Source of the DNA: Desulfobulbus propionicus DSM 2032
GTDB lineage: Bacteria; Desulfobacterota; Desulfobulbia; Desulfobulbales; Desulfobulbaceae
Reading direction: 5' to 3'
NCBI RefSeq assembly: GCF_000186885.1
Contig: NC_014972.1
Coordinates: forward strand, 3,060,001 to 3,092,000
DNA length: 32,000 nucleotides
In this document: piece after piece, positions 1,921 through 32,000 of the stretch
Position numbering within the stretch: position 1 is the stretch's first letter
Layout of the letters: each line of letters starts with the position of its first letter
Notes under the pieces: generated by a model
What the model was told of the DNA's origin: nothing
Databases searched by the model: none
What the model saw: only the letters and a program-made list of their open reading frames with translations
Translations under genes and position numbers: made by a program

Positions 1921-2613
1921 CTAACACTCCAAAAAAGCGTGATTTCCTATAACCCAAACCCCAAAAAGAGGAACTTTTGACGAGACACTTAATTTTTGCA
2001 ATGATCCAACAACGGCCTCAACTTCAAACAAGCTTGCAAACCTGCTATAATCCAACCATCCAACAAGCTCTCGGCTGAACGAATGAATCAGCATCACCGC
2101 AGCAACAGCCCTAAATTGCTCTGCCGTGATTATAGCGGAGACTGCGCGATGAAGTAGTTGGTACCTAATCGTATCATCGGGTAGAGACGTCAACCCCAAG
2201 GAATCCAAAAGGAATTCCAGCCGTTTCATCTTCCCCTCCGAAGCATTTTTCAACCAATCTGTCACTCTTGGTCCAAAAGACTCGCTGACTTTGCCTTCCA
2301 CCATGATGCAGACAGGGCCAGCTGTGGATCGGGATAAGATAAAGATATCGTTTTGCGAACTATTCCTTCCCCCAGGCAAAGGAACCTTAAATTCGGGAAT
2401 GCCGATGACAGGCTGAAGATTAGCTAAAAGTGGATCCATGCTCTCTGCAAAGGGTTGTGCAACTTCCTCTGGTAGTTCCTCCGACGACTCCCAGCAATAC
2501 GCTAAGGTCCGAGCGGAATATCCTTTTCGCCAATGTCTATCTGGATCAGCCAGCAAAGCCTGCCAATCCTCAACCCCGGTCGTAAAAGGAAATATACGGG
2601 ATTTCTTTTCCAT
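1921..2613 (-). CDS. Hypothetical protein with a PD-(D/E)XK nuclease-like motif, in a lower-GC insert
   Basis: 230 aa. The segment NDIFILSRSTAGPVCIMVEGKVSE gives D...E-x-K on two hydrophobic strands, the PD-(D/E)XK pattern. An AGGGA Shine-Dalgarno lies 5 nt upstream. The start is 9 nt after the stop of the upstream flavoprotein gene. Hand counts of several 60-nt lines give about 38-50% GC, against over 60% in the neighbours. Confidence 0.65.
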   Translation of the reverse strand: MEKKSRIFPFTTGVEDWQALLADPDRHWRKGYSARTLAYCWESSEELPEEVAQPFAESMDPLLANLQPVIGIPEFKVPLPGGRNSSQNDIFILSRSTAGPVCIMVEGKVSESFGPRVTDWLKNASEGKMKRLEFLLDSLGLTSLPDDTIRYQLLHRAVSAIITAEQFRAVAAVMLIHSFSRELVGWLDYSRFASLFEVEAVVGSLQKLSVSSKVPLFGVWVIGNHAFLEC

Positions 2614-2622
2614 GTTCCCTAA

Positions 2623-4032
2623 CTACCCCCTCAAATACCCATCCACATCGTTGGCCACGATCACCCCATAGTTGATCGCCCCCAGCCAACCGCTCATGAT
2701 GATCCCGACCGAGCCGACATGAAAGAGGCCCCCTATCTCCTTGTGCAGGAAGCGGGAGATGTCGAGGCCCTCGAACTTGGTGCCGAACGAGGTGCCCTTG
2801 GTGTGCAGGGTGTAGCGGTGGAAGGTCTTGGGCGTGGCCGACTCGATGGTGTCGATCTTGGCGCGGATGCCGGGGAGGTAGCGGTCCAGATCGACCAGAC
2901 AGCGTTCGATCATCGCCTCCTTGGCCGCATGGTAGGCCGCATCGCCCAACCCGGCCCAGTCGTCGTAGTTGGCATTCATCGAGGCGACGATGGTGTAATC
3001 GGGCGCCGCATCCGGCCGGGTTTTGGGATAGTAGAGGGAAAAGGTGCGGCTTTGGGTGTCCATGCGCCGCATCTCCTCCGAGGAGAACTCCGGGGCGGTG
3101 GAGGTGAAGAGCAGGTCGCCGATGTCGGGAATGGTCTCGCCCCGGCGGATACCGAAATAGACCTGGCAGCTCGAATTGTTGACCTGCACCTTACCAAAGC
3201 GGCCGAGGAAGTCCTTGGTAAAACACTCCCGCCCGACCAACTGGTCGATGGTGTTGGTGACGCCCGCGTTGGAGACCACTGCCCGGGCGCTGATCTCGCG
3301 GTCCCCCACCACCACGCCGGTGGTCACGCCGTCCTTCACCAGGATGCGGTCCACCCGCGCGCCGGTGCAGATATCCACGCCCTTGGCCAGCAGTTCCTCA
3401 GCCATCAGGCCGATCAGTTTGTCGGTGCCGCCCTCGAAGGTGAACACGCCCCGGTTCATGAAGTTGGAGAAGACGATGCCGTAGGTGATGGCTGGCTCGT
3501 CCAGGGTGGAGCCGTTGGCGTAAGTGATCGGTTCCATTAGCAACCGGTGCACGTCGCTACGGCCGGGAAAGAATTGCTCGAACAGTTCCCGGGTGGTGAG
3601 CCGCTGGTCGTCGTAGAAGTTCATGCCATCCACGGTGGCGAAGAAGTCCTCGACCACCTGCTGGCTGATGCCGAACCGTTCCTGAAGGATGCGGATGAAG
3701 TCCTCCTTGCTGAAGGTGGTGGTCAGGGAGAACTGGGGGTTGTCGAAGACGATGTGCTGCAGCTGGACGATGGAGTCGCGGATGGCCTTGCCCCAGTACT
3801 TCTTGCAGGTCTTGACCATGCCGTAGGGAAAGCCGTGCAGGGAGACGTCGAAGATATGGCCGCCGCGCTTGAACCAGGTGGCCAGCCCGCCCAGTTGAAT
3901 GTGATGTTCGAGCAGCAACACACTGTGGCCGGCCGCGGCCAAGCGGTTGGCGCTGGTCAGGCCGCCAAGCCCGGAACCGACCACAATGACGTCATATTGG
4001 GGGCGAACCCTATCCAGCGGTGTATAGCGCAT
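2623..4032 (-). CDS. FAD-dependent oxidoreductase, phytoene desaturase (CrtI)/amine-oxidase superfamily
   Basis: It has the [29 protein letters not shown] dinucleotide-binding fold (GxGxxG...E). Length and overall layout are CrtI-like. I prefer ATG 4032 (GGAG 5-8 nt upstream) to the TTG at 4053 used in the track. Confidence 0.8.
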
Positions 4033-7122: not shown

Positions 7123-9771
<2,649 letters not shown>

Positions 9772-10060: not shown

Positions 10061-12046
<1,986 letters not shown>

Positions 12047-12589
12047 AACACGCTCCCCCTCAACAAAAAAACCGCTTGTTCCATGTTACCCATGCCTCCC
12101 GCGTCTCAACCCCTCCGCAGGCAGCCATGGCCAGCCAACTCGGAACACTGGACCGCGCCGTCAGCCTTTTCTTCGGCAAAAGCCTGCCACCAAGGACAAC
12201 TTCTGCTGTTCGATCTGGTACTGAGGTTTTCGGCTCAGAACTCCTAGTTTGAATATGTACAGGAGATTTGCAAAAAAAGAAAACGATTCCCGCGTGAAAC
12301 CGCTGTCAATGTGCATTTTCCCGCGAAAGAGACTCACTATTGACAAAAAGCGGCCCGTTCCATCAGCAGAATCGAGAATTGGAATCAATTTCCTTGCGGT
12401 TTCAAGGAGCTGCGCACTTTGCCATCTTGCTTGTTTGCACAGTATGACCAATATAGTATTGATAACGAAATACCCGCACGCGTGACCACCGGCCGCTCGG
12501 TGATGACGCATGCACGACAATCTGACAACAAACGGTCACGCACCGTTCTGGCCAGGCGCTCTGCCTGAAATCCACCCTTGGAGGTTTTG

Positions 12590-12805
12590 ATGATCATCAC
12601 CGACTGGATTCACGCGATTGCTGGATTTTTCATCCTGATCAGCCTGGCACTGGGCGTTGACAGCCCGAACAACCCCCTGTTCGTCAGCCGGTATTGGTTG
12701 CTGCTCACCGCTTTTGTCGGTGCCAACCTGTTGCAGTTCGGCTTCAGCAAATTCTGCCCACTGGGGCTGATCCTGAAAAAATTGGGCGTCCCGGAACAAC
12801 GGTAG
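12590..12805 (+). CDS. Small two-TM membrane protein, DUF2892/YgaP-C-terminal-like
   Basis: 71 aa counted from the ATG at 12590, with GGAGG 5 nt upstream. The track starts at a TTG at 12578. It has two hydrophobic helices and the conserved-looking FGFSKFCPLG motif. Confidence 0.55.
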   Translation: MIITDWIHAIAGFFILISLALGVDSPNNPLFVSRYWLLLTAFVGANLLQFGFSKFCPLGLILKKLGVPEQR

Positions 12806-12831
12806 CTCGCGTGCCGGTTCCGCCGTTTCCA

Positions 12832-14193
12832 TCATTGCCCTGTCGCGCCTCGGTGCCGCCTTAACCGGGACAGGCAGAGCAAGGAGACAAGGAGCAGGCC
12901 GATAACCAGGTACCACGGAAAATAGCCCATGGTCAGACGGAAGGCCTGATCCTCGATACGCGCTGCCGGCCACTCGGGATGTAACAGCGCCGTGGTGTCG
13001 CGCAACCGTTGCATTAGCCCGGCAAAAACCAGGCCGATGCCCCCATAGGCGGCGTTGAAGGCCAGCCCCTTGAAGCTCAGCACCGTGGCGCGTTGATGCG
13101 ACTCGGCAATCTCGTTGAGATAATGGCTGGTGAAAAAGCTGGTCAGGGTGAGGGCGACGAACACCGCAACCATCGGCAACACCCCCAGATAGGGGACGAA
13201 TACCGTCAAACCGCCCAGCACCACCAGGGAACCGCCGCCAAGCAGGAGCAAATTCCTGGCAGGAGAAAACCGTTCGACCATCCCCCGCGCCAGGCGTGGC
13301 ACGAACAGGCCAAGCACCGCCACCAGCGAACCGATCAGGCCGAAACTGGCCTCCGGCAGATCTATCAGGCGATAATACTTGCTGGTGAGAGTGACGATCA
13401 GCCGCAGGGTATGATCAATGGTCATGGCGTAGAGAATGATCGCCAGGGCCAGGGGGGTGTGCACAATCCATCCGCCGGCGCGCACCGTCAGCCGCGAAAG
13501 CTCCCAGAGCGCTGCCAGGGACGACACGCTTTGCGACCGGCGCGTTCGCCCCGCCGAATCCCGCATCCGCAGGGTCACCGCCAGCGCCAGTAGGCCAAAG
13601 ATCAGGGTGAGATACACCGGGTAGCGCATGGTCATCTGCTGGGTCACGTTCCCGCCCCAGCCCACCCACCCCAGTATCCGATTGACCATGCCGGGATCGT
13701 AGACCACCGCGCCAAGGGTCATGGCAAACATATAGCCGATGCTCTGGGCCCGCATCTGCACCTCGAGCACCCGGGGCCATTCGCCAGCCAAGCCATGAGC
13801 CGCCAGGGTGTCATAGGCCAAGGCCTCGTCGGCGCCGCTGGCCAGGGCCTCGGCCAGGCCGCTGAGTATCCGGTTGGCGAGAAAGGCGAGAAAAATACCT
13901 TGCGGGTTGCCGAGCGGCACAAAGGCGAGCAGCGCCATCTCGGCGATCATCAGGCCCGAGGTGGTCACCAACAGTCGTTTCCGGCCCAGCAAATCGGCCA
14001 GCGCCCCGGAAGGAACCTCGGCAAGGACAATGGTGAAGGCCCACACGGTGTTGAGCAGGGCAAACTGCTCCAGGCTCAGTCCGTAATCAAGGAAGAGGAT
14101 GGTGAACACCGGATAATAGAATCGAGCATTGAACAGAACGCGGAACATCACGAACAAACGGATATTGGGCAGGGCGAGCGGCGATCTGTTCAT
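12832..14193 (-). CDS. MFS transporter
   Basis: 453 aa, about 12 hydrophobic segments, and an MFS-like loop motif GALADLLGRKRLL between TM2 and TM3. Confidence 0.8.
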   Translation of the reverse strand: MNRSPLALPNIRLFVMFRVLFNARFYYPVFTILFLDYGLSLEQFALLNTVWAFTIVLAEVPSGALADLLGRKRLLVTTSGLMIAEMALLAFVPLGNPQGIFLAFLANRILSGLAEALASGADEALAYDTLAAHGLAGEWPRVLEVQMRAQSIGYMFAMTLGAVVYDPGMVNRILGWVGWGGNVTQQMTMRYPVYLTLIFGLLALAVTLRMRDSAGRTRRSQSVSSLAALWELSRLTVRAGGWIVHTPLALAIILYAMTIDHTLRLIVTLTSKYYRLIDLPEASFGLIGSLVAVLGLFVPRLARGMVERFSPARNLLLLGGGSLVVLGGLTVFVPYLGVLPMVAVFVALTLTSFFTSHYLNEIAESHQRATVLSFKGLAFNAAYGGIGLVFAGLMQRLRDTTALLHPEWPAARIEDQAFRLTMGYFPWYLVIGLLLVSLLCLSRLRRHRGATGQ

Positions 14194-27149: not shown

Positions 27150-27504
27150 GACAAATACCCCTGGAGCATCTCGACACGCCGCAGCCGCTGGCGGCTATGC
27201 GGCGGAAAGAAATCGCTTTTCCGGCGGGCCGGCGGCCCCGGTCAACCTCACAGGGTCAGTTCCTATAAGAAACCAGGAGCACAGTCAACACCTTCTTGTG
27301 CTGGCCGGGAAAAAGGGAGCCGGCCCGCCCTTCTTCCATGCCGCCTCAGCCAGCGTGTGCCTTGGATGCTGCTGGTCCGCGCCAGCAAAGCCACCAGTTC
27401 GAGGAGGACCGCAGCGATGGGCAGAAACCTCATTTTCCTATTATCCCGATGTTTCTACGGATTCCAATAGACCAAAACTGCTTACATAGTGCGTACACGA
27501 ACCC

Positions 27505-27543
27505 ACAAAACAAAAAACCCTGCTTTCTTTCGAAAGCAGGGTT
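27505..27543 (-). terminator. Strong hairpin terminator, best on the minus strand
   Basis: A perfect 12-bp stem, AACCCTGCTTTC (27516-27527) with GAAAGCAGGGTT (27532-27543), and loop TTTC. On the minus strand it is followed by TTTTTTGTTTTG. On the plus strand only TTTCT follows. Confidence 0.6.
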
Positions 27544-27578
27544 TCTATATATTGCCTGTAATGTACAGGACTTAGAAA

Positions 27579-27597
27579 TGGTGGCGATGCAGGGAGT
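27579..27597 (-). other. Possible remnant of a tRNA 3' end (candidate attachment-site scar)
   Basis: The plus strand reads TGG-T-GGCGATG-CAGGG-AGT. This is the reverse complement of a partial T-loop, T-stem 3' half, 7-nt acceptor 3' strand, discriminator A and CCA. The hairpin terminator lies 35 nt downstream on the same strand. No complementary 5' acceptor or cloverleaf is present, so it is not an intact tRNA. Confidence 0.25.
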
Positions 27598-27665
27598 GGA
27601 GCTTTTCGACCCCTAAAAAGCCTATATTGCTGGAATCATTCCATTAAACAAAAGGGTTCAATTTC

Positions 27666-27701
27666 CCGTGTACCAATTTTGTGTACCTGAACCGTGTACC
27701 A
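27666..27701 (+). repeat. Three direct GTGTACC repeats with an exact 13-bp period
   Basis: GTGTACC occurs at 27668-27674, 27681-27687 and 27694-27700. The outer copies share the 10-mer CCGTGTACCA. Confidence 0.7.
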
Positions 27702-27725
27702 GACCGAAAAAACAATGAATTATCA

Positions 27726-27800
27726 GTTAATTAACTTATTAACCGATTAAAAGCAAGGAAAATATCAATCAATCAACCTGTTGATTAACTACTTGATTTA
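27726..27800 (+). promoter_or_regulatory. AT-rich block of palindromes and short repeats upstream of the island promoter (candidate operator, ori or att architecture)
   Basis: There is a perfect palindrome GTTAATTAAC (27726-27735) and the ATCA unit in tandem three times (27764-27775). An inverted repeat is AATCAA (27771-27776) / TTGATT (27781-27786), with a further TTGATT at 27793-27798. AATCAACCTGTTG (27771-27783) matches the IHF consensus WATCAANNNNTTR. CTTGATT (27792-27798) is one mismatch from the CTTGATA nick core of pC194/phiX174-type origins. Confidence 0.4.
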
Positions 27801-27813
27801 CCGTTATTATCTC

Positions 27814-27842
27814 TTGACAGTGACCATGGGTGCCGGTAGGAT
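27814..27842 (+). promoter_or_regulatory. Sigma70-type promoter (TTGACA-17 nt-TAGGAT)
   Basis: A perfect -35 TTGACA (27814-27819), an exactly 17-nt spacer, and -10 TAGGAT (27837-27842). It lies about 37 nt upstream of the 50-aa ORF start. Confidence 0.55.
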
Positions 27843-27878
27843 GCTGGGAAATTTCAACCCCTACAAGGAGCGCACCAA

Positions 27879-28031
27879 ATGATCGAGATCAAGACCGCCG
27901 CAGTTGACGATTACGCCAACCAGCCCAGCACAGAAGAGCTTGTCCCAGGTGTCTACCGGGACCGTCAGACCGGTGCCGTCTATGTCAGCGATGGAAAGCA
28001 AACAATCCGCCTGGAGGTCACCGCTGAGTAA
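27879..28031 (+). CDS. Small hypothetical protein (50 aa, acidic)
   Basis: Below the ORF-track size cut-off. My translation is MIEIKTAAVDDYANQPSTEELVPGVYRDRQTGAVYVSDGKQTIRLEVTAE. AAGGAG lies 8 nt upstream. Third codon positions are G/C-rich. It is bracketed by a consensus promoter and a strong terminator. Confidence 0.5.
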   Translation: MIEIKTAAVDDYANQPSTEELVPGVYRDRQTGAVYVSDGKQTIRLEVTAE

Positions 28032-28060
28032 ACCCGCCCCACCTTCCAGCCCCCAGGACC

Positions 28061-28098
28061 AAGGCCACCAGCAAAGGTGGCCTTTTTCATTTTTTTTT
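28061..28098 (+). terminator. Rho-independent terminator
   Basis: A 9-bp stem, AAGGCCACC (28061-28069) with GGTGGCCTT (28076-28084), followed by TTTCATTTTTTTTT. Confidence 0.8.
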
Positions 28099-28172
28099 GG
28101 GCCAAATGGCACGGTTTTCCTATAGGTGAAGACTTTTTTTATTTTATCGAACAAAACAGAGGAAAATCGAAC

Positions 28173-29027
28173 ATGCTTACACTTCAGGGCCTTTCAATTC
28201 GCGAACGTCTTGTCAATTTGACAATGGAGTTTGAACTCCCATTGTCTACAATCACTCAAGAGCTTGAATGGCTTGACAAAGAAGAGACCGCACTTATCCA
28301 GCTTTCAGCGAAGTGCAAGGCGATTAACAGCGATGAAGACAAGAGCTTTACCGGTCGCAAAAAAGCCGTTGATGCAGCGATCCAGGAACAAATCAAACGC
28401 CTTGCCGGTCACGAAAGCAAGATTGCCGCTTTCGACAGATTTATCAAAGACGTTGACGCCGAAATCGTAAACATTTTGAGCCGTGCCAAAGGAAGGACCA
28501 TCGTTCGTGATTTGACAGAAACGATGCTTTACGAGCTGAGACTACAGGAAATCCGCCGTTTGCTGATCGAAAAACAAAAAGATGCCCGCGAAGAGCTTGA
28601 TGCCCGTATCGCCAGGGCAAAGAAATTTGAACTACCGCTTTCTGATGAAGAGCGCACCTTACAGAATGTAGCGCTCAGTCACGCCCTTGCAGCAGCGCAG
28701 AGCTACAATGCAGACACCGACCGGGCAAAGCTGATGCTCGTTGCAGTCGAGGACAGCCCCGTTGCAATGATCACCGCCGACGAACAGGCCCAGGTCGATC
28801 AAACCCTTGCCGGGCAGGTAGCCCAGCCCCGGCTTGAGGCCCAGAAAGCCGCCAGACTGAGAAAGGCAGCAACCGAGCTGATTTTGAGCCAGCTGGAGAA
28901 ACTGAGCCGCCAACCTGAGCTTGTTGTTGAGGCCCGCCAGCAGGATCAGCCGCCTCTGTCCGATCAGCAGCGCGCTTTACTGGCAGCAGGTGTTCCCTTG
29001 GAACCCGTCAAGCCGCTTGAGGTCTGA
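28173..29027 (+). CDS. Hypothetical coiled-coil-rich protein (284 aa), no recognisable family
   Basis: I prefer ATG 28173 (GAGGA about 9 nt upstream), because the track start at 28077 lies inside the terminator. The sequence is rich in E/K/R/Q/A/L heptad-like stretches. It has an internal repeat (E/K)FELPLS at aa 19-25 and about aa 151-157, which is also visible at DNA level. Confidence 0.7.
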   Translation: MLTLQGLSIRERLVNLTMEFELPLSTITQELEWLDKEETALIQLSAKCKAINSDEDKSFTGRKKAVDAAIQEQIKRLAGHESKIAAFDRFIKDVDAEIVNILSRAKGRTIVRDLTETMLYELRLQEIRRLLIEKQKDAREELDARIARAKKFELPLSDEERTLQNVALSHALAAAQSYNADTDRAKLMLVAVEDSPVAMITADEQAQVDQTLAGQVAQPRLEAQKAARLRKAATELILSQLEKLSRQPELVVEARQQDQPPLSDQQRALLAAGVPLEPVKPLEV

Positions 29028-29029
29028 CC

Positions 29030-29233
29030 ATGCAACCCGGCAAACGTGGGCGACAACTCAAGACGCCCAATGACGTAGGCAGAGCGACACGGGAGATTAT
29101 AAACAAACTTGATACGGGTGTTATGTCACCTGACAAAGCCCAGGCCATTCTTGCAGGTTTGGCGCTGGCCTTCAGTGTAATGCAACGCGATTCCGGAGCC
29201 ACTCCCGCAGGTAATCGGCAGCAAACAGCCTGA
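29030..29233 (+). CDS. Small hypothetical protein (67 aa), translationally coupled
   Basis: The ATG is 2 nt after the upstream TGA (TGAccATG). It has a basic N-terminus (PGKRGRQLKTP) followed by an amphipathic helix-like segment. Confidence 0.5.
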   Translation: MQPGKRGRQLKTPNDVGRATREIINKLDTGVMSPDKAQAILAGLALAFSVMQRDSGATPAGNRQQTA

Positions 29234-29249
29234 GTAATCGCTTTCGAGT

Positions 29250-29286
29250 GCTGGGGTGGTAGCCGATCCCTCCCAGCCTTTTTTTA
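29250..29286 (+). terminator. Probable rho-independent terminator
   Basis: GCTGGG (29250-29255) pairs with CCCAGC (29272-29277), with partial extension, followed by CTTTTTTT. Confidence 0.45.
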
Positions 29287-29299
29287 GGAGAACCAAAAA

Positions 29300-29827
29300 A
29301 TGGAAAAGAGAAAAGGCCGTACCAGCCGCCTTACCCGTGAGCTAATCAACGAGCTTGCCCACAACGTGGCACAAGGCTTTTCGTATAAGGTATCTGCTGC
29401 CCTGGCAGGGGTTGCCGAGAGCACTTTTTATTACTGGCTGGCCAAAGGGAAGGAATCGAAAAGCGGTATCTTCCTGGATTTTTTAGAGGAAATTAAGGTA
29501 GCGGAGCAAAAGGCCAAAGTGACCACCTTGGAGGCAATCAAAGAAATTGCCTATGGTGGCCGGATCATCAAGAAAATTCAGGAGCGCAGGGACGAAGAAG
29601 GACGGCTTATCGGAACTATTGAAACCACAGAGCAGCTTGCCCCCAGCCTGGCCGCCTGTTGCTGGATGCTTGAGCGAAGATGGCCCGAAGAGTTCGCCCC
29701 ACGGTCAGCTCTGGAAATCTCCAACGGCAAGAATCCTTTTCAGTTTGCCGGAACCCTGTTCCAGCAGGCTGTTTTACCCGGATCAGCCGACCATGGCCCG
29801 GTAGACACCGACGACAGCGACGAATAG
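29300..29827 (+). CDS. Phage terminase small subunit-like HTH protein (stand-alone)
   Basis: 175 aa with an AGGAG RBS. The N-terminus is KGRTSRLTRELINELAHNVAQGFSYKVSAALAGVAESTFYYWLAKG (HTH). Later comes ...AACCWMLERRWPEEF. Together these match the pattern I associate with small terminase / HTH_Tnp_1_2-type proteins. The C-terminal tail is acidic. Confidence 0.5.
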   Translation: MEKRKGRTSRLTRELINELAHNVAQGFSYKVSAALAGVAESTFYYWLAKGKESKSGIFLDFLEEIKVAEQKAKVTTLEAIKEIAYGGRIIKKIQERRDEEGRLIGTIETTEQLAPSLAACCWMLERRWPEEFAPRSALEISNGKNPFQFAGTLFQQAVLPGSADHGPVDTDDSDE

Positions 29828-30044
29828 GCATAGCCCCGGCAGTGCATATAGCCATTGCATACAACCGCGAAGTCAACCCCTTCCCAGGACAGCGGAGCAT
29901 TGCCGAGGGGGTAGGGTCAGAGGGGGTGCCCTGCCAATACCTTCAAGAAGGCCCACAGCAGGCCCTACAATCGACTTTTGGAGCTTGGCCTATAGGATGC
30001 CTTGCGTAGAAGGTAAAAAGGCCCTATATTGAGCCCTGGACCCA

Positions 30045-30107
30045 TAAAACAAAAAAGCCCCATGCTCGATGATTGGCGTCGGAGAGCACAGGGCAAAAAT
30101 GGAAGAC
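30045..30107 (-). ncRNA. Predicted ~60-nt small RNA (countertranscript-like) upstream of rep
   Basis: On the minus strand there is a promoter TTGACA-17 nt-TATTGT (30142-30114). It is followed by an 11-bp stem, GCCCUGUGCUC/GAGCAUGGGGC (30094-30057), with a 16-nt loop and UUUUUUGUUUU. Two positions in the stem are G-U pairs on the minus-strand RNA but C-A mismatches on the plus-strand RNA, so the structure is strand-specific. Confidence 0.4.
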
Positions 30108-30113
30108 ACATGA

Positions 30114-30142
30114 ACAATACTGCCTGCTTCAAAGATTGTCAA
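30114..30142 (-). promoter_or_regulatory. Sigma70-type promoter for the predicted small RNA
   Basis: On the minus strand: perfect -35 TTGACA (30142-30137), a 17-nt spacer, and -10 TATTGT (30119-30114). Confidence 0.45.
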
Positions 30143-30180
30143 GCCCGCCTTAACTTTCCCACCCACCTGCCCACAGTTCC

Positions 30181-30211
30181 TTGTCTGTTGTACTCTATGA
30201 CAATAGAGTAC
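30181..30211 (+). promoter_or_regulatory. Candidate rep promoter overlapped by a perfect 9-bp inverted repeat (operator- or ori-like)
   Basis: TTGTCT (30181-30186), 17 nt, TAGAGT (30204-30209). The inverted repeat is GTACTCTAT (30190-30198), loop GACA, ATAGAGTAC (30203-30211). It lies 29 nt upstream of the rep ATG. An alternative upstream promoter is TTGCGT-17 nt-TATATT at 30002-30030. Confidence 0.35.
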
Positions 30212-30239
30212 CCTATAGCTAAATAATTCAATCGTCACG

Positions 30240-31037
30240 ATGAAACGGTTATTTAGCAAACTCTCCAGCCCCCAGAGGAAGGCTCTTTATTGCCTGACCG
30301 AAAATGTTGAACGTTTCGTTGGGCAGTACGGGAGGGACCGCGTAGCGGTCATGACCCTTACTTTCCCAGATCACTTAACAGACCCCAGAGAAGCATCGAA
30401 GCGGTTGAACTCTTTCATGAGTAATTTCCTTCGTGAAAGGATTGGCTCTTTTATCACGGTCAGGGAATTGCATGAAAGTGGTTCATGGCATTACCACCTT
30501 CTTGTTGCTTTCCAGGCCCCTATTTGCCTTGGTTTTCGATGGAAATACGCCAAGGACCACAAGGCTATCCCGGTATTCAAAACCGCAACCAAGGCCCTGA
30601 AAACGCTCTGGAGAGACATTCGTGAGGCCGCCCCAAAGTACGGTTTTGGTCGTTCAGAAATCCTTCCAGTCCGAACTGGCAAGGGTCTTGCAAAGTATTT
30701 CAGCAAGGTCATTCTCCAAAGAGCCCTGGACCCTGAACGATTCAAGGGTGTCCGCCTGGTCAGCTACTCCAGGAATTTCCTACGGTCTGTTGCCCGCTTC
30801 GCGTGGAATAACCCGTATACCCGAGATTTCCGCCGTAAAGTGAAACGGTTTGCTACCGAATTGCTTGGTATCACTGAGAAATTGACAGATGAGCCGCCGG
30901 ATGTTGATTGGCTGAGTTACCTATTCCCAGCCTGGTTCTGGCGATACGGAAAAGTCATCGACGGCATTGACCGTATCCTTGCCCAGCCGGACCTTGCCAA
31001 TATGTACCGGCACACCATCCAGCCCGCAGAGTTCTAA
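30240..31037 (+). CDS. HUH-superfamily rolling-circle replication initiator (Rep)-like protein
   Basis: 265 aa with Rep-order motifs. Motif I is VAVMTLTFP (aa 35-43). Motif II is the HUH WHYHLLV (H84-Y-H86). Motif III is GLAKYFSKV (Y153), resembling the AKYxxK catalytic-Tyr motif of pC194/phiX174-type Reps. No obvious Shine-Dalgarno. Confidence 0.7.
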   Translation: MKRLFSKLSSPQRKALYCLTENVERFVGQYGRDRVAVMTLTFPDHLTDPREASKRLNSFMSNFLRERIGSFITVRELHESGSWHYHLLVAFQAPICLGFRWKYAKDHKAIPVFKTATKALKTLWRDIREAAPKYGFGRSEILPVRTGKGLAKYFSKVILQRALDPERFKGVRLVSYSRNFLRSVARFAWNNPYTRDFRRKVKRFATELLGITEKLTDEPPDVDWLSYLFPAWFWRYGKVIDGIDRILAQPDLANMYRHTIQPAEF

Positions 31038-31155
31038 TCCTTTCAGGAAGCCCCCTATCCGCCCCGTAGAGCAAGATTTAACCCTTGGCCTATACCTAAT
31101 ACCCATTGACCTTGTTTTTTGATTGTAGGCCGTTTCTGTGGAGCTTCATTGATGG

Positions 31156-31185
31156 TTGACAGGTGTTCTCCAGGTGTGTTACATA
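31156..31185 (+). promoter_or_regulatory. Candidate promoter for the recombinase gene
   Basis: TTGACA (31156-31161), 18 nt, TACATA (31180-31185). It overlaps the first of two TGTNACA elements. Confidence 0.3.
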
Positions 31186-31233
31186 ATATCAAACGTTCGT
31201 ATGAAGGTTTGTAACATACCAGGGAGGAACGCA

Positions 31234-32000
31234 ATGGAAGGCCGTTTTGTGACATATTACCGAGTGAGTACAGCCAAGCAGGGCCGGTCCGGTTTGGGCC
31301 TGGAAGCGCAGAAAGAGACGGTGACCCGCTACCTGAATGGCGGTAACTGGGAAGTGGTTGGCACATATACCGAGGTGGAAAGCGGAAAGCGGGATGACCG
31401 GCCCGAACTGGAAAAGGCGATCAGGGATTGTAAGTTGAAAGGTGCCCGGCTGTTGGTGGCCAAGCTGGACCGACTGAGCCGTGACCTGCATTTCATTACC
31501 AGCTTGCAAAAGGCCGGTGTGCCCTTCACCGTTGCCGAGATGCCGGACGCAACAGAGTTGACCGTGCACATATACGCCGCCATGGCCGAACATGAACGCA
31601 AGGTTATTTCCCAGCGCACCAGGGCCGCCTTACAGGCCGCCAAGGCAAAAGGAAAGAAGCTGGGGAACCCCTGCTTACAGCGTGGCGAGCAGATACCCGG
31701 CAGCGGTGCCCCTAAGAACGCCAACAAGGCCCGGATTGAGAAGGCCGACGACTTCGCCCGACAGATGGCCCAGATCATCCAGGAAATGCGCTCTGAGGGT
31801 GATTCACTCCGGGATATAGCCGACAGTTTGAATAATGCTGGGTACAGGACCGCACGGGGAAAGGAATGGCAGGCAGCCAGCGTGAAGCGTGTTCTTGACA
31901 GGGTGACACCGAGGGAACCCGAAATGAAAATGATTGTTATGGGTGATGCTGCACCAAAGTCTTTTGACGGAACCACCCCAAAAACCCATAACCTTCTTGA
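31234..32000 (+). CDS. Serine recombinase (resolvase/invertase family), 3' end beyond the window
   Basis: Absent from the ORF track because there is no in-window stop. An AGGGAGGA RBS precedes it. My translation is MEGRFVTYYRVSTAKQGRSGLGLEAQKETV...LLVAKLDRLSRD...ERKVISQRTRAALQAAKAKGKKLGNP...SLRDIADSLNNAGYRTARGKEWQAASVKRVL. It has the catalytic Ser in YxRVSTxxQ, the resolvase core and a C-terminal HTH. Confidence 0.9.
   Translation, partial: MEGRFVTYYRVSTAKQGRSGLGLEAQKETVTRYLNGGNWEVVGTYTEVESGKRDDRPELEKAIRDCKLKGARLLVAKLDRLSRDLHFITSLQKAGVPFTVAEMPDATELTVHIYAAMAEHERKVISQRTRAALQAAKAKGKKLGNPCLQRGEQIPGSGAPKNANKARIEKADDFARQMAQIIQEMRSEGDSLRDIADSLNNAGYRTARGKEWQAASVKRVLDRVTPREPEMKMIVMGDAAPKSFDGTTPKTHNLL

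Follow-up and report, generated by a model that had tools for sequence, protein, structure and literature searches.

A small tRNA-Met island of Desulfobulbus propionicus that joins a phasyl-like rolling-circle replicon to a stand-alone terminase small subunit gene: a candidate minimal phage satellite

Introduction

A segment of 32,000 nucleotides from the chromosome of Desulfobulbus propionicus DSM 2032 (NC_014972.1, positions 3,060,001 to 3,092,000) was analyzed, and the whole of this segment is referred to below as the window. From position 27579 to its end, the window is occupied by a genomic island that is integrated in the 3'-end of the gene for tRNA-Met(CAT) beside groESL. The island encodes a rolling-circle replication initiator of the HUH endonuclease type (Rep), a small serine recombinase, a homologue of the small subunit of phage terminase (TerS), and three orphan proteins denoted p50, p284, and p67. 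Here, the island is compared with complete relatives at the same chromosomal site, and we propose that it may be a minimal helper-dependent phage satellite that uses a plasmid-type rolling-circle replicon.

Results

Genes and Boundaries of the Island

The features of the island are collected in Table 1. All six open reading frames (ORFs) are intact and are read from the plus strand, and the last of them continues past position 32000.

Table 1. Features of the island within the window (aa, amino acids; HTH, helix-turn-helix)
Feature	Position	Strand	Description
Left attachment site (attL), core	27579–27595	+	17-nt copy of the tRNA-Met(CAT) 3'-end, TGGTGGCGATGCAGGGA; the plus strand is the reverse complement of the tRNA end
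Direct repeat containing the attL core	27576–27595		20 nt, AAATGGTGGCGATGCAGGGA
Three GTGTACC repeats	27668–27700	+	13-bp spacing; candidate arm-type sites for a tyrosine integrase
AT-rich inverted repeat	27725–27790		24-nt arms, 71% complementary; 98–100% identical to contig L002; candidate operator
Sigma-70-like promoter	27814–27842	+	TTGACA-17-TAGGAT, 5' of p50; putative, from a consensus match (10/12)
p50	27879–28031	+	50 aa; first gene inside attL; conserved orphan
Intrinsic-terminator-like hairpin and T-run	28061–28084	+	After p50; 9-bp stem, 6 GC pairs, tail TTTCATTTTT
p284	28173–29027	+	284 aa; all-alpha-helical orphan; signature gene of the island family
p67	29030–29233	+	67 aa; small orphan between p284 and TerS
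TerS homologue	29300–29827	+	175 aa; Despr_2685 (identical); phrog_4102 'terminase small subunit', 2.2e-23
Non-coding block 5' of rep	30030–30239		Candidate double-strand origin and control region
Candidate antisense RNA	30046–30142	-	About 60 nt; -35 at 30142–30137, -10 at 30119–30114; hairpin 30094–30057; U-run 30056–30046
Perfect 9-bp hairpin	30190–30211		GTACTCTAT-GACA-ATAGAGTAC; only element kept in the centroid fold
HUH Rep	30240–31037	+	265 aa; PF23343 REP_ORF2-G2P, 5.8e-8, 33.4 bits against a cut-off of 27.8
Imperfect palindrome	31170–31223		54 bp, 26-nt arms; directly 5' of the recombinase gene; candidate recombination or operator site
Small serine recombinase	31234–32000	+	Resolvase/invertase type; at least 255 aa, no stop codon before the window end

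An earlier reading of this DNA, made without database searches and called here the sequence-only reading, had noted a fall in GC content from approximately 27.5 kb. The change was found to be sharp. The GC fraction is 0.60–0.67 until approximately 27.2 kb, is 0.395 at 27400–27799, and is 0.44–0.595 from there to 32000, with means of 0.619 for positions 1–27578 and 0.517 for positions 27579–32000. Position 27579 is the first base of the copy of the tRNA-Met 3'-end and therefore marks attL. A direct repeat of this left junction, for which the sequence-only reading had recommended a search, was located in the relatives, where its 17-mer is the same as that at window position 27579. The metagenome contig L002 has copies of the 20-nt direct repeat at 7296 and at 13401, of which the latter forms the 3'-end of tRNA-Met; the island in this contig is therefore 6105 bp. 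Equivalent direct repeats bound the islands in L003, L075, L076, L137, and L141, and those of the diverged L137 island are approximately 5.84 kb apart. The D. propionicus island runs beyond position 32000, and the window covers its left three-quarters when the total of approximately 6.1 kb is taken from the relatives. The motif GTGTACC occurs four times in the 32-kb window, where 1.57 matches are expected, and three of the four are clustered just inside attL. Both ends of the L002 island (at 7388/7401/7414 and at 13318–13343) carry repeats of this motif as well, as do both ends of the L137 island.

Tyrosine Integrase and Complete Relatives at the Same Site

The metagenome contigs L002 to L006 contain the same host flank (a GH1 glycosidase, an SbmA-like transporter, and a cellulase) followed by the same island. 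An exact match to the window was found in only one Logan contig, of 2.5 kb. In L002, the recombinase gene is followed on the opposite strand by the gene for a 485-aa tyrosine integrase (DUF6538 and Phage_integrase domains), which is read inward from the tRNA, and beyond the integrase lie tRNA-Met(CAT), groEL, and groES. The integrase and tRNA-Met occur together in L002, L003, L004, and L137, the tRNA of L137 being expected from its position. The D. propionicus protein P0035 is an orthologue of this integrase and is 89% identical to that of L002. The att repeat in the window, combined with the integrase and tRNA of the relatives, identifies the element as a tRNA-integrating island of the tyrosine-integrase type. 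Comparison with L002, L137, and P0035 places the integrase of the D. propionicus island just outside the window, and its right end is predicted to consist of this integrase gene and attR.

The window and L002 are 99.9–100% identical across 7.3 kb of host flank and the left att/arm region. The identity within the island interior is 43–90%, and the recombinase genes cannot be aligned. In a third lineage, L137 to L140 (Desulfobulbus metagenome-assembled genome, 18 contigs), the order p284-p67-TerS-Rep-resolvase-integrase is found between the att repeats. The L137 proteins are 49% (p284), 39% (p67), 30% (TerS), and 50% (Rep) identical to those of the window, and the L137 integrase is 73% identical to that of L002. 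The three diverged lineages have one seven-gene order, with att repeats and arm sites intact. The ratios of nonsynonymous to synonymous substitution rates (dN/dS) between the window and L002 were determined to be 0.26, 0.22, and 0.27 for p284, TerS, and Rep, respectively. Judged by these values, the genes of the island appear to be functional and under purifying selection, and their order is kept at 30–50% protein identity. No capsid, portal, terminase large subunit (TerL), tail, Zot, or conjugation genes were found in the complete islands of L002 and L137.

An unrelated cargo of approximately 7.5 kb, behind a homologous integrase, occupies this tRNA-Met attB in L141 to L143, which have the host background of the window. 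In L141 (9897–17409; also in L143), this integrase has 75% identity, and the cargo includes a 62-aa HTH_3 protein, a second Phage_integrase protein of 198 aa, and many small orphans. Directly outside the distal att repeat of L137 (16292–21477) are genes for a type I restriction-modification system (HsdM and HsdS) and an AAA/SMC-like ATPase. The two 17-mer copies of L137 are also distinguishable, with ...GCCAATA on the integrase side, where the tRNA is expected by position, and ...GCCACCA at the distal repeat. If the 17-mer on the integrase side is the tRNA's own end, then the element supplies a new 3'-end to the tRNA.

Stand-Alone TerS Homologue

The assignment of the 175-aa protein as TerS-like in the sequence-only reading is supported by the profile match listed in Table 1 and by homologues that adjoin TerL in phages. 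When a profile of the island TerS proteins was compared with the PDB, the top four matches were all to the TerS protein gp1 of Shigella phage Sf6, at a marginal E-value of 0.014. The aligned region takes in the N-terminal HTH together with the conserved motif W-x-L-x-R-x-x-P-x-x-[FY]-G. The best match in phage databases is ORF8 of Methanobacterium virus PhiF3, which is located directly 5' of TerL and portal genes. Two further relatives (L088 and L116) are followed immediately by Terminase_6N/6C (TerL) and portal genes, as confirmed with Pfam, and a TerL-like ORF lies immediately 3' of the TerS homologue in 23 of the 55 loci with enough sequence. These neighborhoods and profile matches argue that the protein belongs to a genuine family of TerS proteins and is not simply an HTH regulator of a generic kind. 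A single-sequence AlphaFold2 model of the protein was poor (predicted local distance difference test, pLDDT, of 51.7).

No TerL partner was found in the window or in the complete islands of L002 and L137, where the TerS gene is always alone. The TerS gene is therefore stand-alone, as in satellites. The sequence-only reading had likewise seen no TerL, capsid, or portal gene, and their absence extends to the complete islands. Among the other TerS loci, those from peat and bog metagenomes (L087, L093–L099, and L102–L107) encode TerS-like proteins of approximately 140 aa with no same-strand ORF of at least 300 aa directly 3'. These loci may be further orphan-TerS elements or differently organized phages.

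Orphan Genes and the Wider Island Family

The proteins p50, p284, and p67 were assigned to no family when compared with Pfam, PHROG, NCBIfam, and PADLOC profiles, and the PADLOC scan for defense systems gave no meaningful match. The sequence-only reading had described three ORFs of no recognizable family. This description is correct with respect to family matches, but the genes are not singletons, and together p284 and p50 mark out a small island family. Homologues of p50 are found at the same position in L002 and L003 (54% identity) and in L081, an island with a large serine recombinase (43%). Positional homologues of p67, which is short and fast-diverging, are present in L003 (71 aa, 40% identity) and L137 (68 aa, 39%). 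The start of p284 at position 28173 agrees with the N-termini of its homologues. An exhaustive HMMER search of 1.84 billion proteins returned 14 cluster representatives related to p284, and the alignment of this family does not contain any conserved 7-mer. The AlphaFold2 model of p284 (pLDDT of 87.7) has 10 helices. A Foldseek comparison of this fold with the PDB and BFVD gave no match (best E-value of 0.13 and template modeling score of at most 0.28).

The islands in L075 to L078 are 10.5–10.8 kb and occupy the same tRNA-Met beside groESL. Their gene order is p50-like, p284, SPP1-gp7/MuF head protein, TerS, tape measure, small resolvase, and integrase. The TerS is 43% identical to that of the window, and the tape measure protein is 1043 aa (TMP_3, 7e-43). 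Genes for capsid, portal, TerL, tail-tube, and replication proteins were not found in L075 to L078. In L074 and L081 to L083, a large serine recombinase replaces the tyrosine integrase, and p50 (43% identical), p284, MuF, and the small resolvase are kept. An AlpA gene is located upstream in L073. Capsid, portal, TerL, and tail-tube genes are missing from all of the p284-family islands examined. The core of this family is thus a tailed-phage-related module without a virion, which is a hallmark of helper dependence. In the D. propionicus type, the MuF and tape measure genes are absent, and the Rep cassette occupies their position.

The presence of its own tape measure in a satellite-like element (L075, 1855–12692; also L076, L077, and L078) is unusual. 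The large serine recombinases of L074 (97–7669) and L081 (276–8552) are 629–635 aa, and L081 also has an acetyltransferase. The proteins of 156–172 aa encoded directly 5' of p284 homologues (L081, 4925–5443; L080, 111–581) were considered as HUH proteins from an HxH...Y-like resemblance. This assignment was rejected, as hhalign gave a probability of 0.5% against the Rep family and no Pfam or PHROG family was matched.

Rolling-Circle Replicon

The sequence-only reading had identified the 265-aa protein as an HUH endonuclease, and this was confirmed by a PF23343 score above the cut-off and by the presence of the HUH and tyrosine motifs. The protein also matches phrog_3419 'rolling circle DNA replication initiation' (1.3e-6) and is identical to the NCBI 'rolling circle replication-associated protein' of D. 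propionicus. In an alignment of 17 sequences, T39/T41 (xLTLTF), H84-Y-H86, and Y153-xx-K156 are invariant and are found in the order of the Rep class. The paired second tyrosine of the relatives (R-Y-x-G-K-Y) is absent from the island Rep, in a region where the alignment is ambiguous. The protein is 33–42% identical to the 'phasyl DNA replicon protein arp' of non-mobilizable plasmids of 1.3–2.1 kb from Enterobacteria, Pasteurella, and Aeromonas. Identities of approximately 38–42% were also obtained with Reps from filamentous phages of Neisseria; the contigs of these phages encode TspB, Zot, and an IS110-type transposase as well. Further relatives are integrated in Verrucomicrobiota and other chromosomes. 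None of these plasmid, filamentous phage, and integrated loci has another gene in common with the island. In six of the loci (L014, L022, L030, L039, L042, and L047, from Verrucomicrobiota, Nevskiaceae, and others), the integrated Rep relative lies a few kb from a tyrosine integrase, which suggests that other, unrelated integrated Rep elements exist.

The non-coding block 5' of rep differs from that of L002 by a handful of mismatches, most of them past position 30167, and the adjoining TerS DNA is approximately 55–65% identical. For the origin and rep together (approximately 1 kb), the window and L002 are 83–100% identical, and their neighbors are not. Conservation of blocks in the origin region extends as far as L137, with its Rep of 50% identity. 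When the island and phasyl-type plasmids were searched for a phiX174-type origin, no match exceeded chance expectation.

The candidate antisense promoter (TTGACA-17-TATTGT on the minus strand) agrees with the consensus at 10 of 12 positions. It is followed by an 11-bp terminator hairpin and U6GU4 (z-score of -2.85), and none of 200 shuffled sequences folded as well. The promoter (TTGACA-17-TATCTT), stem, and U-run are kept in L137 with a different loop, and comparable antisense signals, a promoter and a terminator, precede arp in L135, a phasyl-type plasmid of 1.3 kb. Rolling-circle plasmids classically control their copy number in this way, through an antisense RNA encoded in the rep leader. 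We infer that a counter-transcribed RNA of approximately 60 nt would control rep, and we regard the 30030–31037 cassette as a probable captured phasyl-like mini-replicon.

Serine Recombinase Cassette

The small serine recombinase recognized in the sequence-only reading was verified by matches to PF00239 Resolvase (5.4e-31), PF07508 Recombinase (in part, 1.9e-7), and HTH_62 and by the active-site motif YYRVSTAKQ. Its identity is 78% with the 229-aa resolvase of L074 but only 30% with the recombinase that occupies the corresponding position in L002. The palindrome is conserved 5' of the L074 recombinase gene, and the remaining upstream DNA cannot be aligned. The identity to the L074 enzyme and the shared palindrome thus indicate that the recombinase travels with its own site as a cassette. 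Since a tyrosine integrase and tRNA att sites are present, the serine recombinase is more likely to be a resolvase or invertase, and it is probably not the integrase of the island.

Other Features of the Window

In the region 27150–27546, a high-GC and apparently non-coding stretch of approximately 360 bp separates the start of the GH1 gene (27149, minus strand) from a strong bidirectional terminator hairpin at 27513–27546, just outside attL. No Rfam family reached the gathering threshold, and weak matches were limited to the host terminator hairpin and the antisense-RNA region. The chromosomal part of the window also has GC dips to 0.53–0.54 at 2001–3000 and 12001–13000, relative to approximately 0.62.

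Discussion

A Possible Helper-Dependent Phage Satellite

The island is a mosaic of four parts. These are the integrase and att sites with their GTGTACC arms; the module of p50, p284, p67, and TerS; the phasyl-like replicon of approximately 1 kb; and the resolvase with its palindrome. We consider it an even call whether this mosaic is a minimal helper-dependent phage satellite that operates on a plasmid-type rolling-circle replicon. The sequence-only reading had recognized the logic of a phage satellite in a lone TerS-like gene next to a replication module, and this idea survives as the leading explanation. It had also contrasted the serine recombinase with the tyrosine integrases of phage-inducible chromosomal islands (PICIs). 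This distinction has fallen away, with a tyrosine integrase and tRNA att site placed by the relatives just beyond the window. The end of an ordinary prophage, also considered in that reading, was ruled out because the complete relatives measure 5.8–6.1 kb between their att repeats.

As a satellite, the island would be excised and integrated by the DUF6538-type tyrosine integrase, which may recombine the 17–20-nt core with the aid of the GTGTACC arm sites at both ends. The excised circle would then be replicated by the HUH Rep from the block 5' of rep, and the antisense RNA of approximately 60 nt in the rep leader could set the copy number. The small serine recombinase and the adjoining palindrome may resolve or rearrange multimers. 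TerS would bind the DNA of the element and recruit the large terminase of a helper phage, so that multimeric element DNA could be packaged in helper capsids. Such a scheme would resemble the TerS-based hijacking of Staphylococcus aureus pathogenicity islands (SaPIs) and PICIs and the concatemers of the PICMIs (phage-inducible chromosomal minimalist islands) and virion-encapsidated integrative mobile elements (VEIMEs). The proteins p50, p284, and p67 would be accessory, with possible roles in regulation, excision, or interference with the helper.

Several results favor a satellite. The islands are complete and bounded, they show mobility and turnover at a single attB, and the dN/dS values are low (0.22–0.27). 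The MuF and tape measure genes in the p284-family relatives point to tailed phages. A number of observations weigh on the other side. No helper phage was identified, and the phage homologues found share at most approximately 31% identity with the island TerS, so that none of them points to a cognate helper. Circular, attP, and concatemer forms were not seen, and searches of IMG/VR with TerS, p284, and the origin block found no copy of the island. The integrase and attR of the D. propionicus island were not seen contiguous with the window and are predicted from the relatives and from P0035. Genes for AlpA, Xis, or a repressor are not recognizable in the window variant, which also lacks the MuF gene of its relatives. 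Rolling-circle replication by HUH enzymes normally yields unit-length single-stranded circles and not double-stranded concatemers, and copy control by an antisense RNA suggests steady plasmid-like maintenance over burst replication.

A fuller version of the satellite reading is offered tentatively. It would recognize an undescribed family of tailed-phage satellites in the Desulfobulbaceae, with p50, p284, and an orphan TerS as its markers and MuF as an optional addition. Within this family, the D. propionicus type may have exchanged the usual primase-type replicon for an HUH rolling-circle replicon of plasmid or filamentous-phage origin that is controlled by an antisense RNA, and the multimers of this replicon would feed TerS-directed headful packaging in helper capsids. 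The sister types may bring their own head-internal or ejection proteins (MuF and tape measure), a strategy that would be undescribed for satellites.

Alternative Explanations

The strongest alternative, which we nevertheless think unlikely, is an integrative rolling-circle plasmid, or episome. A phasyl-like replicon and a resolvase would here be mounted on a tRNA-targeting integrase backbone, and the element would alternate between chromosomal and low-copy plasmid states. The TerS-like protein, p284, p50, and p67 would be regulators or leftovers from a satellite ancestor, and transfer would be only passive, via generalized transduction, transformation, or vesicles. This explanation accounts well for the resemblance of Rep to the arp proteins of very small non-mobilizable plasmids, for the cassette-like behavior of the origin-rep block relative to L002, and for an antisense promoter and terminator of the classical rolling-circle design that is shared with L135. 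A resolvase with an adjoining site is also a typical plasmid module for multimer resolution. It does not account for TerS, p284, and p50, which are under purifying selection and are syntenic in variants with only 30–50% identity, and this argues against inert leftovers. In addition, the relatives of the L075 type lack Rep and retain p284, TerS, and MuF, so that the core of the family is a phage-related module and not the replicon.

An integrative and mobilizable element (IME) is a poorer candidate. The HUH Rep would then act as a non-canonical relaxase at an oriT within the conserved block, and the island would be mobilized through the conjugation pore of a co-resident element. Many IMEs are small and are inserted in the 3'-ends of tRNA or other genes by tyrosine or serine recombinases. 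Many encode relaxases related to rolling-circle initiators, among them initiators of phage type (PHA00330 and Viral_Rep), and some have no coupling protein (PMC5704250). The island likewise is a small integrated element with a site-specific recombinase and an HUH initiator-like protein, and it has no transfer apparatus of its own. IMEs, however, are defined by conjugative mobilization, and phage-packaging genes are not a feature of the class (PMC5704250). No coupling protein (TcpA or VirD4) or canonical relaxase was detected in profile scans of the island proteins, and the closest relatives of Rep are from tiny non-mobilizable plasmids and filamentous phages. The antisense-RNA control points to vegetative replication, and an IME would leave TerS, as well as the MuF and tape measure genes of the relatives, unexplained.

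It is quite improbable that the island is a satellite of a filamentous phage (inovirus), comparable to TLC-phi or RS1, in which single-stranded circles made by Rep would be exported by the morphogenesis proteins of a helper inovirus and the TerS-like HTH protein would be a regulator. The PF23343 family does include inovirus G2P and plectrovirus ORF2 proteins, the Reps of Neisseria phages with Zot and TspB are among the relatives of the island protein, and filamentous-phage satellites with HUH Reps and without morphogenesis genes are known (TLC-phi, PMC6744903). Neither a Zot ATPase nor coat proteins, the marks of an inovirus prophage, were found in the window or in the complete islands, and the complete islands also lack a gene for a single-stranded DNA-binding protein. 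For the complete relatives, this rules out the end of an inovirus-like element, which the sequence-only reading had listed as an option. The conserved genes that accompany Rep belong to the tailed-phage type (TerS, with MuF and tape measure in the relatives), the integrase is a tRNA-specific tyrosine integrase rather than Xer/dif, and no filamentous helper is known for Desulfobulbus.

Finally, a decaying chimera, formed when the degraded fragment of a satellite or prophage captured a small rolling-circle plasmid and lost its mobility, would agree with the missing MuF gene, the short and fast-diverging p67, and the lack of a recognizable regulator or excisionase, but we give it hardly any credence given that every ORF is intact, that the dN/dS values of p284, TerS, and Rep are low, that the gene order, att repeats, and arm sites are preserved in three diverged lineages, and that near-identical hosts carry different variants.

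Comparison with Known Elements

The island, here taken as a possible phage satellite, resembles the PICMIs, the VEIMEs, and the PICI-like tycheposons, and it is a member of none of them. The PICMIs of Vibrionaceae are satellites of approximately 6 kb that are packaged as concatemers in full-size helper capsids (PMC10803314). Like the island, they have 6–7 genes in approximately 6 kb, a site-specific tyrosine integrase, and their own replication gene, and they have no capsid or capsid-remodeling genes (PMC10803314). Concatemer packaging is a model that fits so small an island. The PICMIs differ in that they adjoin fis and have a core of int, alpA, and primase with neither terS nor an HUH Rep (PMC10803314), whereas the island is located in tRNA-Met beside groESL and combines TerS, HUH Rep, and serine recombinase without alpA or a primase.

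The VEIMEs lack major capsid genes, many encode TerS homologues, and some have plasmid-like replication genes (PMC9618062). In six subgroups, both a tyrosine integrase and a serine recombinase are present, and the concatemers are consistent with rolling-circle replication. The VEIMEs were defined by sequencing from marine virus particles; encapsidation is a prediction for the island, whose host is an anaerobic Desulfobulbus. The VEIME text that was consulted does not mention an HUH Rep that belongs to PF23343.

The tycheposons of Prochlorococcus are flanked by full and partial tRNAs and have an inward-facing tyrosine recombinase at one end (10.1101/2020.12.28.424599). In the PICI-like tycheposons, a small serine recombinase is a hallmark, the replication module is small, and terS is the sole packaging gene (10.1101/2020.12.28.424599). 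The layout of L002 with its terS has this architecture. Tycheposon replication modules consist of primases, helicases, and polymerases instead of an HUH Rep, the integrases form a lineage-specific clade, and the hosts are cyanobacteria and other marine bacteria (10.1101/2020.12.28.424599).

The PICIs and SaPIs have, as is proposed for the island, an integrase, a replicon, and a satellite TerS that redirects the helper terminase (PMC10085698). The PICI core in SatelliteFinder consists of an integrase, an AlpA-type regulator, a primase-replicase, terS, and a capsid-morphogenesis gene, of which at least four of the five are needed (PMC10085698). The island has at most two of these parts (terS, and the integrase in the relatives), and no matches to AlpA, primase-replicase, or capsid-morphogenesis proteins were found in profile scans of the island proteins. 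The island is also approximately half the usual size of a PICI. With an HUH Rep instead of a primase or helicase, and with no alpA, the island therefore falls outside the PICIs, PICMIs, and tycheposons by those of their features that can be compared here.

The likeness to phasyl (arp) plasmids and Neisseria filamentous phages is confined to the replicon. The Rep proteins have the same order of motifs, the antisense promoter and terminator of L135 are similar, and the origin-rep cassette of approximately 1 kb is the size of a whole plasmid replicon. The phasyl plasmids are free and measure 1.3–2.1 kb, and the inoviruses are 5–8 kb with Zot and TspB, whereas the replicon of the island is one integrated module and the second tyrosine of the Y-x-x-K-Y pair of the relatives is not conserved in its Rep. 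A full-text literature search, which was incomplete in coverage and is therefore weak evidence, found no paper that joins phage satellites with a rolling-circle initiator.

Conclusions

We have now been able to place the D. propionicus island in a small and apparently undescribed island family, which on the sequence evidence would belong among the small helper-dependent integrative elements; the functions given here are predictions from sequence. If the island is only an integrative plasmid, it would be a modest addition to known island diversity. The mosaic itself is a clear natural example of modular exchange among plasmids, filamentous phages, and tailed-phage satellites, with integrase, replicon, and resolvase cassettes swapped independently at one attB in hosts that are approximately 100% identical. 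The origin-rep cassette of 1 kb and the tRNA-Met integrase are possible genetic tools for Desulfobulbus. To our knowledge, no helper-satellite system has been known in the Desulfobulbaceae. If the island is a true satellite, then phage satellites would extend to these sulfate-reducing bacteria, and p284 and p50 would be new and structurally unmatched candidates for hijacking or regulatory proteins. It would also be a minimal satellite that is assembled from an integrase, a captured rolling-circle plasmid replicon of 1 kb, and a single packaging gene.

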